From: a virus
Lineage: Duplodnaviria > Heunggongvirae > Uroviricota > Caudoviricetes
Length of the DNA: 4,369 bases
IMG/VR virus record: IMGVR_UViG_2778261301_000015
Location: 1-4,369 of that record
Strand: one strand, 5' to 3'
This document shows positions 829-4,163 of this stretch, piece by piece. A model generated the notes under the pieces. It searched no databases. It was not told the origin of the DNA and saw only the letters and a list, made by a program, of their open reading frames with translations. The number at the start of each line of letters is the position of its first letter. The stretch's first letter is position 1. The position numbers were made by a program, and so were the translations under genes.

Positions 829-1356
829 ATGCAGCATTTGATAAATATAACGGCAGGTAATCCAAAAACGGTTGAACAATATCAATTAACAAGGGATTTT
901 GATGTTGTCTGGTTTTTTTCAGAAGATGGTAAGAACTGGTACGAAGAACAAAAGTATTTTGCTGATGACACGATAAAAATAGCGTACGACAAGGATAATA
1001 TCATCCGCTATGTGGAAAAGGATGTGACAGCTATCAGACCGGATGGATTAAGTGTTGTTGAAGTGGCGGATATTACTGCTAACCGACGGGCGGACATTTC
1101 AGGGGGCTGGATGTTTAAGGACGGCAAAGTGATTAAACGCATTTATACGGCAGAGGAATTGCAGCAGCAGGCAGAAAACCGGAAAGCCAGACTTCTTGCA
1201 GATGCTGAATCCGTGATTTTGCCGCTGGAGCGCGCTGTCAGGCTGAATATGGCTACAGAGGAGGAGCGCACACGACTGGAAGCATGGGAACGCTACAGCG
1301 TTCTGGTCAGTCGTGTGGATCCTGCAAATCCTGAATGGCCGGAAATGCCGCAATAA
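829..1356 (+). CDS. G: Tail fibre assembly protein / chaperone (P2 gpG-like)
   Basis: 175 aa ORF starting [40 protein letters not shown] and ending [21 protein letters not shown], which I recognise as closely resembling P2 gpG. The ATG at 829 lies 3 nt after the H stop with a GGT/AGG-like purine stretch upstream. Position and size match the P2 H-G arrangement. Confidence 0.9.
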
Positions 1357-1405
1357 GTTGTATGAGCTTACATACCTATAGCACAGAGTAAAGCCTAATC
1401 TGACA

Positions 1406-1436
1406 GTCCGCTCTGTGCCAAGAGCGGACGTTTATA
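1406..1436 (+). terminator. Candidate intrinsic terminator after the tail fibre genes
   Basis: Perfect 9-bp stem GTCCGCTCT (1406-1414) / AGAGCGGAC (1421-1429) with a 6-nt loop GTGCCA, followed by GTTTATAA. The T-tract is short and interrupted, so strength is uncertain. It lies 50 nt after the G stop. Confidence 0.45.
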
Positions 1437-1561
1437 ACATTATGAATAATTTATGTTAAAGCATGATTATGCCATTATAGTAGTCTCGCATTGAACTCTT
1501 CATGCCACCATTCTTGTTGGAGCAATTTGTATGATATAATAGTAATCATTACACTTAGTTC

Positions 1562-2485
1562 TTAATGAGGGTTCATTGTCAAATCAAGTGAGTCAGGCAG
1601 TGAATCTCTTTGTTCTTTGGTATAAACATGTAATTTAGCCTTAAAACCTAGAATATCACCTTCCATGGTTAAGAATCGCCCTTTCTCTGCAAAGAACATG
1701 GGATTAATATCTCTACGAACAACATCAGCAAACCAATTAGCTGATTTTGTGGCTTCCACTAACCAATTATGACATTCTTGAATCCATTGCTTATATTTTT
1801 CAACGTCTTCTTCATAATTAACATTCCAGCCACCAGTTTTATAAAATTTATCTGGATAATAAGTGTCTTCATAAAGTTTAGAATGTTCCATGAAAGTTTG
1901 AGCGGCTATGTTAAGGGTTATGGAAAATGTTTCAGTGGCTCTTCGCAGTTCATCAAACTCATTAGGCCATATAGCAGAAATGACTTTTTGCCGAAATTCA
2001 AATATATCATCGGGTAAATTTTTAGGCCACTTAGGATCTGATGATAATGCAAAGCTAGTCCAATTCTGCCAATTTTCTAAACGACAATATTTTACTGCGG
2101 AGTCAATTATTGAAGTTACTGAAACTTGCTTAGCTAGAAAAAATTTATCTTCAACTCTACTAAGAGTTTCAGAAACCCATAACTCATGTGCTGACTTAAC
2201 GTTATAGAGTTTTTCGGCTGGCCAATCTTCTACATTTCTATCAATTTCCGTATGATGGTTTGGGCAAAGGAGAATAAGATTGTGATAACTATTTCTTTCA
2301 TCCAGAGTTAAATTCGATTTTCCTCGAGCCGCATCTTCCTTCTCTCCAATAATATGTGCCTGTTCCCCCAGTGTAAATGCGGAATTAACGGAGTTCTTAT
2401 CCTGTGTCAACTCTCTCTTACAAATTGCACATCGATTTCCGGAACGCCCCCACAACAATTTGATGTCTTTTTGATTTATTGCCAT
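1562..2485 (-). CDS. HNH nuclease-domain protein with uncharacterised C-terminal domain (about 307 aa); candidate anti-phage / exclusion cargo gene
   Basis: Minus-strand ORF with stop TAA at 1564-1562. Numbering from the Met at 2485-2483 (MAINQKDIKLLWGRSGNRCAICKREL...), the protein has CxxC at residues 19-22, His44 in EQAHIIGE, Asn69 in YHNLILLC, and C74-P-N-H77-H78, which is the arrangement of a zinc-binding HNH fold. A Shine-Dalgarno-like AAGGGA lies 9 nt upstream of this ATG and a perfect TATAAT further upstream. The remaining roughly 230 residues (WPAEKLYNVKSAHELW...WNVNYEEDVEKYKQWIQECHNWL...) carry no motif I recognise. Confidence 0.75.
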   Translation of the reverse strand: MAINQKDIKLLWGRSGNRCAICKRELTQDKNSVNSAFTLGEQAHIIGEKEDAARGKSNLTLDERNSYHNLILLCPNHHTEIDRNVEDWPAEKLYNVKSAHELWVSETLSRVEDKFFLAKQVSVTSIIDSAVKYCRLENWQNWTSFALSSDPKWPKNLPDDIFEFRQKVISAIWPNEFDELRRATETFSITLNIAAQTFMEHSKLYEDTYYPDKFYKTGGWNVNYEEDVEKYKQWIQECHNWLVEATKSANWFADVVRRDINPMFFAEKGRFLTMEGDILGFKAKLHVYTKEQRDSLPDSLDLTMNPH

Positions 2486-2513
2486 GTTAAATATTCCCTT
2501 TGGGTGAGTTAAA

Positions 2514-2550
2514 CCCAATATTATAGTTTTTATATAAACAAAAAAAGTAG
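2514..2550 (-). promoter_or_regulatory. Candidate sigma70 promoter for the HNH gene
   Basis: On the minus strand there is a perfect -10 hexamer TATAAT (plus coordinates 2525-2520) preceded by an A/T-rich tract (TTTTTTTGTTTATATAAAAAC) that could act as an UP element. The -35 at 17-bp spacing (ACTTTT) is weak. The predicted transcript start near 2512 gives a leader of about 27 nt containing the AAGGGA ribosome-binding site. Confidence 0.35.
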
Positions 2551-2813
2551 TTTGCCAGAAATTATCATAAAAAAGATGCCTAAAGCCATCTTTCATTAAG
2601 TAATCAGAAAGGCCAAAGGTTGATATTTTCCCCTGGGGATTTTGTCAGGCCTAACCTGAAGGCATTCAATTCCCACTCGTTCTGCATCCTGATTAGCTGC
2701 CATTTGGCCGATATATTGGGTCGTTAAAACCTCATCAACGACGAGAAAAGGGGCAAACATCCGCTTCTTGCTCAAACAGGCGGTCAGATTTGACAGAATT
2801 TAGGTTACGTAAT

Positions 2814-2842
2814 TTGTCAGTTGGAAACTGAGAGAGTATAAA
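2814..2842 (+). promoter_or_regulatory. Candidate sigma70-like promoter on the + strand upstream of FI
   Basis: TTGTCA at 2814-2819 (5 of 6 matches to TTGACA), a 17-bp spacer, then TATAAA at 2837-2842 (5 of 6 matches to TATAAT). This is sequence pattern only, and its role relative to the expected Ogr-dependent late promoter is unknown. Confidence 0.2.
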
Positions 2843-2853
2843 TCAAGGCACCC

Positions 2854-2879
2854 GGCGGATTGCCCGCCTTTTCTTTATC
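2854..2879 (+). terminator. Terminator-like GC hairpin plus T-run (possible attenuator or leader structure)
   Basis: GGCGG (2854-2858), loop ATTGC, CCGCC (2864-2868), followed by TTTTCTTTATC (2869-2879). The stem is only 5 bp. It is oriented for + strand transcription and lies about 95 nt upstream of the FI start. Confidence 0.3.
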
Positions 2880-2972
2880 TGTTGTTTCATCCACTGACCA
2901 GCCAGGTCAAATAGCGTCTCATGTACTGCCCAACAGAAAATAGTTGCACCCATTAACCACGGAGTTAAACGG

Positions 2973-4163
2973 ATGAGTGACTATCATCACGGCGTGCAGG
3001 TGCTGGAGATTAACGACGGCACCCGCGTCATTTCCACCGTATCCACGGCCATTGTCGGCATGGTCTGTACGGCCAGCGATGCGGATGCCGAAACCTTCCC
3101 CCTCAATAAACCGGTACTGATTACCAATGTGCAGAGCGCAATTGCAAAGGCCGGTAAAAAAGGCACGCTGGCGGCGTCGTTACAGGCCATCGCTGACCAG
3201 TCAAAACCGGTCACCGTTGTTGTGCGTGTGGAAGACGGCACCGGCGACGACGAGGAAACGAAACTCGCGCAGACCGTTTCCAATATCATCGGCACCACCG
3301 ACGAAAACGGTCAGTACACCGGACTGAAAGCCCTGCTGGCGGCGGAGTCGGTAACTGGTGTTAAACCGCGTATTCTCGGCGTGCCGGGACTGGATACCAA
3401 AGAGGTGGCTGTTGCACTGGCATCAGTCTGTCAGAAGCTGCGCGCTTTCGGGTATATCAGCGCATGGGGCTGTAAAACCATTTCCGAGGTGAAAGCCTAC
3501 CGCCAGAATTTCAGCCAGCGTGAGCTGATGGTCATCTGGCCGGATTTCCTCGCATGGGATACGGTCACCAGTACCACCGCCACCGCGTATGCCACCGCTC
3601 GTGCACTGGGGCTGCGTGCCAAAATCGACCAGGAGCAGGGCTGGCATAAAACGCTGTCCAATGTCGGGGTGAACGGTGTTACCGGCATCAGCGCATCTGT
3701 ATTCTGGGATTTGCAGGAGTCCGGCACCGATGCTGACCTGCTTAACGAGTCAGGTGTCACAACGCTGATTCGCCGCGACGGTTTCCGCTTCTGGGGTAAC
3801 CGTACCTGCTCTGATGACCCACTGTTCCTCTTTGAAAACTACACCCGCACCGCGCAGGTGCTGGCCGACACGATGGCTGAGGCGCACATGTGGGCGGTGG
3901 ACAAGCCCATCACCGCAACGCTGATTCGCGACATCGTTGACGGCATCAATGCCAAATTCCGTGAGCTGAAAACAAACGGCTATATCGTGGATGCGACCTG
4001 CTGGTTCAGCGAAGAATCCAACGATGCGGAAACCCTCAAGGCCGGAAAACTGTATATCGACTACGACTATACACCGGTGCCTCCTCTCGAAAACCTGACC
4101 CTGCGCCAGCGTATTACCGATAAATACCTGGCAAATCTGGTCACCTCGGTTAACAGCAATTAA
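2973..4163 (+). CDS. FI: Contractile tail sheath protein (P2 gpFI)
   Basis: 396 aa ORF beginning MSDYHHGVQVLEINDGTRVISTVSTAIVGMVC and ending LANLVTSVNSN, which I recognise as P2-family tail sheath. GGAG at 2961-2964 sits 8 nt before the ATG. GC content is high and position-specific, typical of conserved P2 late genes. It is followed 12 nt later by the tail tube gene. Confidence 0.95.
   Translation: MSDYHHGVQVLEINDGTRVISTVSTAIVGMVCTASDADAETFPLNKPVLITNVQSAIAKAGKKGTLAASLQAIADQSKPVTVVVRVEDGTGDDEETKLAQTVSNIIGTTDENGQYTGLKALLAAESVTGVKPRILGVPGLDTKEVAVALASVCQKLRAFGYISAWGCKTISEVKAYRQNFSQRELMVIWPDFLAWDTVTSTTATAYATARALGLRAKIDQEQGWHKTLSNVGVNGVTGISASVFWDLQESGTDADLLNESGVTTLIRRDGFRFWGNRTCSDDPLFLFENYTRTAQVLADTMAEAHMWAVDKPITATLIRDIVDGINAKFRELKTNGYIVDATCWFSEESNDAETLKAGKLYIDYDYTPVPPLENLTLRQRITDKYLANLVTSVNSN

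Follow-up and report, generated by a model that had tools for sequence, protein, structure and literature searches.

The HNH gene carried by this P2-like (Peduovirus) prophage of E. coli most likely starts at the ATG at position 2485 and encodes a protein of 307 aa. The 344-aa RefSeq model would then be over-extended by 37 codons, through 111 nt of non-coding DNA that hold the ribosome-binding site and most probably the -10 element of the gene. We put the probability of this reading at about 0.92. The start at 2485 is supported, at the level of sequence analysis, by comparison with homologues, by the ribosome-binding site and by structural homology. The window referred to throughout is the whole stretch of 4369 nt that was analysed, and its features are collected in Table 1.

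Table 1. Features of the window around the HNH gene.
Feature	Position	Strand	Remarks
H tail fibre, C-terminal part	up to 825	+	
P2 G-like tail-fibre assembly gene	829..1356	+	left anchor of the variable site; Pfam Caudo_TAP 2e-34; annotations
AT-rich cargo between P2 genes G and FI	1440..2755		BLAST and composition
HNH gene, most likely CDS	1562..2485	minus	307 aa; start ATG 2485..2483, stop at 1564..1562
C-terminal domain	1586..2098	minus	~170 aa (residues ~130-300); confident AlphaFold2 model with long helices plus two beta-hairpins
N-terminal HNH (His-Me finger) nuclease domain	2147..2485	minus	residues 1 to ~113
CxxC	2431..2420	minus	C19 and C22 of the short form
37-codon extension, judged non-coding	2486..2596	minus	5' leader and candidate core promoter
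Shine-Dalgarno-like AAGGGA	2495..2500	minus	9 nt before ATG2485
Perfect TATAAT, candidate -10	2520..2525	minus	40 nt before ATG2485
Upstream ATG, RefSeq/PGAP start	2594..2596	minus	without Shine-Dalgarno, inside a local stem-loop
59-codon TTG ORF	2596..2775	minus	stop overlaps ATG2596 (TAATG); judged spurious
Segment upstream of the HNH gene, judged non-coding	2597..2755	minus	80-89% identity to Citrobacter, Kluyvera and Enterobacter loci
P2 FI-like tail sheath gene	2973..4163	+	right anchor; Pfam Phage_sheath_1/1C; annotations
FII, start of gene only	right end of window	+	

Results

Conservation begins at the downstream start codon

The minus-strand open reading frame 1562..2596 encodes 344 aa and has the N-terminus MKDGFRHLFYDNFWQTTFFVYIKTIILGLTHPKGIFN-MAINQKD... 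A search of 5.8 billion proteins returned 1205 homologues. The best 120 of these, from which the lengths were taken, are mostly 302-306 aa long and cover 87-88% of the 344-aa query. Their N-termini follow the pattern M-[AG]-I-x-Q-K-D-I-K-L-L-W-G-R-S-G-N-R-C, and their start aligns to Met38 of the long ORF. In the alignment, the few longer homologues carry unrelated extensions of varying lengths, and protein conservation of the extension was not found among the homologues.

The same boundary is seen in the DNA of 80 loci, drawn from species-representative genomes of many phyla and counted by a tblastn-anchored tally. This tally supersedes an earlier motif-anchored one, which was too strict and caught only 38 of the 80 loci. 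At the position of Met38, 50 loci have ATG, 8 GTG and 4 TTG, and a start codon lies within two codons of this position in 78/80. Fewer than 37 codons upstream, 74 of the 80 loci have an in-frame stop (median distance, 7 codons), and an extension of at least 30 codons is possible in only three. An earlier note on this DNA, which had proposed the start at 2485, named the alignment of homologues as a check and an extension conserved among them as evidence against its proposal. Conservation of protein and DNA begins at Met38 (nt 2485), and homologues do not keep the 37 residues.

The extension is disrupted in close relatives

Copies of the gene in Citrobacter, Kluyvera and Enterobacter are 93-95% identical, lie in unrelated genomic contexts and have ~270 nt of upstream DNA in common. 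The Kluyvera extension has a TAG at codon 3, a 1-nt insertion and a 1-nt deletion. The Enterobacter extension has two 1-nt deletions, which bring TGA TAA into frame. From the conserved ATG onwards, both copies are intact. The Citrobacter copy retains both the open frame and the upstream ATG, and gene callers there give 339- and 349-aa models. Residue differences from the Citrobacter copy amount to 5/37 in the extension versus 13/302 in the body, and substitutions are distributed over the three codon positions as 1:3:3 in the extension and 8:7:28 in the CDS. In two further copies, nucleotide identity falls from 85% in the gene to 54% in the extension (Erwinia) and from 75% to 50% (E. hormaechei), and both have in-frame stops 3-4 codons upstream of the conserved start. 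The stops, the indels, the drop in identity and the substitution pattern in close relatives all argue that the extension is non-coding DNA.

Homologues of the HNH protein also occur in other settings. One lies at the same tail-fibre-assembly/tail-sheath site in a Morganella P2-like prophage, and the Citrobacter copy sits in a lambdoid prophage. The E. hormaechei copy is downstream of a P4-type primase (D5_N/Pox_D5), and a Providencia copy adjoins an integrase and a DUF927 primase. In E. hormaechei and in the metagenome contig L097, the HNH gene is followed by a 348-aa gene that has no Pfam family. In our numbering the homologue loci are L101 (1501-2409), L008-L010 (2501-3409), L097 and L099. 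The loci fit a mobile, possibly defensive, single-gene cassette.

Initiation signals at the two start codons

The 15 nt preceding ATG2596 (CTTTCTGATTACTTA) form an anti-Shine-Dalgarno duplex of -1.5 kcal/mol at best, in keeping with the claim that this ATG lacks a ribosome-binding site. At the internal methionine, AAGGGA (2500..2495) is followed, as had been pointed out, by a 9-nt spacer (ATATTTAAC) to the ATG at 2485..2483, and its duplex reaches -5.3 kcal/mol. Only 12.5% of cargo positions are as good, which is modest evidence alone. Scoring the ribosome-binding sites of both starts, as the earlier note had advised, favours 2485, and local RNA structure agrees. RNA folding encloses ATG2596 in a local stem-loop of -10.3 kcal/mol, and the region of ATG2485 (58-61 nt) is near-unstructured: its fold of -2.3 to -3.0 kcal/mol is less stable than those of 86-90% of shuffles. 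A purine-rich, Shine-Dalgarno-like motif is found at the same position in relatives (AAGGGA, AAGGAA, AAGAAA and GAAAGA).

The extension had been described as an A/T-rich tract with a perfect TATAAT; its G+C content is 27%, and the hexamer lies at 2525..2520. Among the copies of the gene, those of E. coli and Citrobacter alone keep the extension open in frame, and a 37-codon frame stays open in ~3.5% of composition-matched shuffles. Since the TATAAT, the Shine-Dalgarno motif and the open frame are each weak taken singly, the verdict rests on the comparison with relatives.

A candidate promoter inside the leader

Because the HNH gene is divergent from FI, it needs a promoter of its own between 2486 and ~2970. 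In seven lineages, three of which are otherwise diverged upstream, a TATAAT lies at -40/-41 from the conserved ATG (41 in one case). The sequence AACTATAATnTTG is invariant at this distance in the window, Citrobacter, Enterobacter, Erwinia, E. hormaechei and the metagenome contig, and the Kluyvera version of the region is ATTATAAT. In Erwinia, E. hormaechei and L097, upstream identity is otherwise near random and AACTATAATnTTG is kept as an island. BLAST homology to Erwinia and L097 ends at ~2546-2550, just upstream of the TATAAT.

At 2520-2550, the -10 hexamer of a candidate sigma-70 promoter is present. Hand enumeration of -35 elements at 16-18 nt gave a best match of 2/6 in the window and 3/6 elsewhere. 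An extended -10 (TGn) is absent, the bases preceding TATAAT being AAC. A consensus promoter scan did not report the site, as expected when no -35 is present. The hexamer occurs six times in the window against 2.9 expected, a count that is not statistically unusual, as 18 of 200 shuffles reach it. The proposal that the gene's own promoter lies within the extension thus stands as far as the TATAAT at a fixed distance in seven lineages is concerned, and falls short for the -35 or extended -10 element and for the scan that missed the site. On this sequence evidence, we consider the TATAAT a probable -10-only promoter in a T-rich context. From its position the transcript would start at ~2513-2511, with a leader of ~27 nt. 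A hairpin between the -10 and the Shine-Dalgarno motif (TTGGGT...ACCCAA, 2518..2500) was considered for a functional role and rejected; we treat it as incidental because the Citrobacter and Kluyvera substitutions, read by eye, are not compensatory.

The conserved segment and the reading frame upstream of 2596

Where the HNH gene occurs in unrelated contexts in Citrobacter, Kluyvera and Enterobacter, the ~160 nt upstream of the extension (2597..2755) are co-inherited with it. E. coli has the segment only together with the HNH gene, in 9 of 5426 genomes. It has no Rfam match and no coding signature. The copy in the Citrobacter lambdoid prophage (L092) also shares 2768-2832, a piece of the P2 backbone, which hints at an origin of this copy from a P2-like hotspot.

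The 59-codon ORF that overlaps ATG2596 shows substitutions relative to Citrobacter of 6:9:6 by codon position, in-frame stops in Enterobacter, stops and indels in Kluyvera, and no PHROG or Pfam match. Translational coupling from this ORF through the TAATG overlap was rejected, as the frame lacks a coding signature and is broken in relatives. In STEC1588, the RefSeq annotation has a 'hypothetical protein' of 99 aa (WP_301001361.1) whose ORF, upstream of the HNH gene, ends at the same overlap (L002 2799-3098, equal to window 2596-2895 on the minus strand). This ORF is owed to one T-to-A change that removes a stop, it crosses the conserved P2 intergenic hairpin, and it has no coding signature in relatives; judged from these features, it is probably spurious.

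Architecture of the HNH protein

The N-terminal domain matches Pfam HNH_2 (PF13391) with 28.4 bits against a cut-off of 21. In 112 sequences, no variation is seen at C22, H44, N69, C74 and H78, and conservation reaches 90% or more at C19, H68 and H77, so that the catalytic His/Asn/His and the zinc-binding Cys/His residues of an HNH protein are retained and the product is a putative nuclease. The earlier note had remarked that the short form puts the CxxC motif near the N-terminus, as is usual for HNH domains. The cysteines are C19 and C22, and in solved homologues the HNH domain begins at residue 1. The best PDB match is 9om4_A (E=6e-18), which aligns over residues 1-125 only. Its first residues, MAIEPRTKQILWGR, align one to one with MAINQKDIKLLWGR from residue 1 of both proteins. 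Cap5 is also matched (7rwk, E=9e-10), and Cap5 chains align from residue 2-4. The PADLOC profiles Cap5/SAVED-HNH, PDC-M68A and SduA match residues 2-113 only, from profile position ~5. PDC-M68A is the best PADLOC match (E=4e-31; residues 3-110 versus profile positions 5-114 of 253), and since it covers the HNH domain only, it indicates a shared domain and not membership.

AlphaFold2 with 112 homologues gave a mean pLDDT of 82.7, mostly above 90 for residues ~120-300. A Foldseek search of the PDB returned only Cap5, over the HNH domain. The C-terminal domain has no family in Pfam, NCBIfam, PADLOC or PHROG and no fold match in the PDB or BFVD; it holds many invariant tryptophans (W139, W142, W153, W173, W234 and W251).

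9om4 comes from the SPARHA Argonaute system, where it acts as the HNH-APAZ effector; both there and in Cap5, activation requires dimerisation of the HNH domains through an N-terminal helix (PMC12738770). Like Cap5 (8fmf, 7rwk) and the SPARHA effector, the HNH protein carries its nuclease at the extreme N-terminus, followed by a C-terminal domain in the position of their regulatory one, and it shares with them the N-terminal helix, the CxxC and the motifs EQAHI, YHNLILLC and HH. Unlike theirs, its C-terminal domain is not a SAVED or APAZ domain, judged by sequence and by fold. The protein is not a CBASS Cap5, as it has no SAVED domain and the single-gene cargo has no CD-NTase gene; nor is it a SPARHA effector, as it has no APAZ domain and the cargo has no short Argonaute gene.

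The cargo site between G and FI

Homology to the P2 backbone stops at ~1420-1439 and resumes at ~2755-2767 in BLAST comparisons with L-413C, Wphi and two other E. coli P2-like prophages. The G+C content is 33-41% in the cargo and 50-60% in the flanks. The flanks are matched by 1700 of 5426 complete E. coli genomes and by 82 phage records, and the cargo is present in only nine of these genomes. The cargo is a single minus-strand gene with an HNH_2 domain, oriented opposite to the tail genes and divergent from the FI tail sheath gene. With conserved flanks, varying content and atypical composition, the G-FI site has the hallmarks of a variable cargo (moron) site. We take it to be the Z/fun variable site of P2; a literature search on this site and on PDC-M68 yielded nothing usable.

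Other P2-like phages and prophages carry unrelated single genes at the site: a plus-strand 169-aa HNH endonuclease (L004 1426-1935), minus-strand hypothetical proteins of 259 aa (L003 1409-2188) and 346 aa (L005 1421-2461), and Wphi orf44 (L006 1473-2372). The cargo resembles the known P2 morons and defence hotspots in being a small AT-rich insert between conserved phage genes, with content that varies among P2-like phages, and in being oriented and expressed independently of the late operons. It differs in location from the P2 hotspot analysed by Rousset et al. in 2022 (PMC9122126), which lies between gpA and gpQ (old/tin).

The edges of the cargo show several further features. Homology to all close relatives ends at 1583, within the last codons of the HNH gene; the relatives end in ...DSLDL* and the E. 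coli P2 copy has five more residues (TMNPH). Together these place the 3' recombination junction inside the end of the gene. Between the P2 backbone and the gene end lie ~120 nt of AT-rich DNA (1440-1561), which match neither the backbone nor the HNH cassette of other genera and hold TATAAT on both strands (1474-1479, minus; 1535-1540, plus). They may be a remnant of an earlier cargo. Just 3' of gene G, at 1407-1430, is a hairpin, GTCCGCTCT-N6-AGAGCGGAC. Window 1397-1434 resembles, in inverted orientation, L005 2564-2601 (87% over 38 nt), at the right-hand border of another cargo, that of E. coli ECC-1470. The hairpin may be a terminator or a recombination element that brackets the variable site. 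In the conserved backbone between the cargo and FI, a terminator-like hairpin on the plus strand (2854-2878) consists of GGCGGATTGCCCGCC followed by TTTTCTTTAT; plus-strand cargo transcripts would end there, before the FI late promoter region. We found no convincing repeats flanking the cargo within the window and no Rfam match over 1300-3000.

Annotation of the gene

In both complete genomes inspected, RefSeq/PGAP gives a 1035-nt CDS of 344 aa (for example, WP_201795225.1), which bears out the suspicion that callers preferring the longest ORF would mis-assign this start. In public data, 70 contigs carry the exact 344-aa sequence and 59 the exact 307-aa one. GenBank already contains the correct 307-aa form, and the pipelines disagree.

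Discussion

In the arrangement that we favour, translation from ATG2485 would yield the 307-aa protein, and 2486-2596 would be an AT-rich leader that is open in frame by chance and holds the ribosome-binding site AAGGGA (2500..2495) and most probably the -10 element TATAAT (2525..2520). The mRNA would start near 2512, downstream of ATG2596, so the 344-aa form could not come from such a transcript.

The points that speak against a start at 2485 are the open frame and ATG2596 kept in the E. coli and Citrobacter copies, the TAATG overlap and the moderate strength of the Shine-Dalgarno motif. One rival is a RefSeq model that is right, with the 37 residues as a genuine lineage-specific N-terminal extension translated from ATG2596. 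This model is the longest ORF and is annotated by PGAP, its frame and ATG persist in Citrobacter, and a frame of this length stays open in few shuffles of the same composition. Nevertheless, we consider it highly improbable. ATG2596 lies in a stem and is not preceded by a Shine-Dalgarno sequence; frameshifts or stops break the extension in Kluyvera and Enterobacter, and hundreds of homologues lack it. The substitution pattern of the extension is non-coding, and its residues are rich in Phe, Ile and Tyr, as expected from translated AT-rich DNA. A hydrophobic add-on of 37 residues would, in addition, probably interfere with an N-terminal dimerisation helix like that of the relatives (PMC12738770). 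Scarcely more probable is the use of both starts, with read-through transcripts giving a minor long isoform, possibly through termination and reinitiation where ORF 2596..2775 overlaps the upstream ATG at TAATG. A stop/start overlap of this kind is able to allow coupled translation, and the 99-aa ORF that PGAP annotates in STEC1588 ends at it. However, ORF 2596..2775 does not behave as coding (6:9:6, stops in Enterobacter and Kluyvera, no family match), its 99-aa version depends on one T-to-A change and runs across the P2 intergenic hairpin, and the extension itself is not conserved as protein. Because the upstream ORF lacks a coding signature and its longer version is a matter of one base, both a genuine long form and a dual start are unlikely.

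The position of the promoter is less settled than the start codon. The gene might start at 2485 and be transcribed from elsewhere, for example from the conserved 2597-2755 segment or from further towards FI. On this view, some other cause would account for the conservation of the TATAAT, or the hexamer would be just one among a number of weak AT-rich initiation sites; the mRNA would include ATG2596, which would go unused. The TATAAT has neither a -35 nor an extended -10 element and escaped the scan, and the ~160-nt non-coding segment upstream has been conserved and inherited along with the gene in four genera; by eye, it contains TTGATG-17-TATATC. In contrast, Erwinia, E. hormaechei and L097 have no similarity beyond ~-60 and yet keep AACTATAATnTTG at -40/-41, and the consensus scan found no better promoter-like site on the minus strand at 2486-3000. 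A promoter outside the leader is therefore possible but unlikely in our view, and we retain the TATAAT as the probable -10 element.

The error is an ordinary start-codon over-extension, an already known kind of annotation error. As in other longest-ORF cases, an upstream in-frame ATG without a ribosome-binding site was chosen over a conserved start preceded by a Shine-Dalgarno motif, and the added residues are a low-complexity translation of AT-rich upstream DNA. Particular to the HNH gene is only that the extension crosses the gene's own candidate -10. The case shows how AT-rich, horizontally acquired cargo can yield open frames through its own promoter region, and by itself the over-extension opens no new biological question. 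Its practical value is a correction of the annotation: the RefSeq start should move 37 codons downstream, which is relevant to those who clone or model the HNH protein and to those who build profiles of the family.

A wider reading, which we offer tentatively and hold at somewhat less than even odds, concerns the family itself. More than 1200 homologues occur in Proteobacteria, Cyanobacteria, Chloroflexota, Actinomycetota and other phyla. The 307-aa protein may represent a widespread single-gene immunity family, in which an HNH effector of the Cap5/SPARHA type, activated by oligomerisation, would be joined to a new C-terminal sensor domain without a known fold. Phages and their satellites would carry the gene in variable sites such as P2 G-FI, P4-like elements and integrase islands. 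Since the N-terminal helix drives dimerisation in the Cap5/SPARHA clade, a hydrophobic add-on of 37 residues could mask or alter activity in defence assays. If the immunity reading is true, a free N-terminal helix would be essential for activation, and the RefSeq 344-aa model, cloned as annotated, would give a dead or misbehaving protein.
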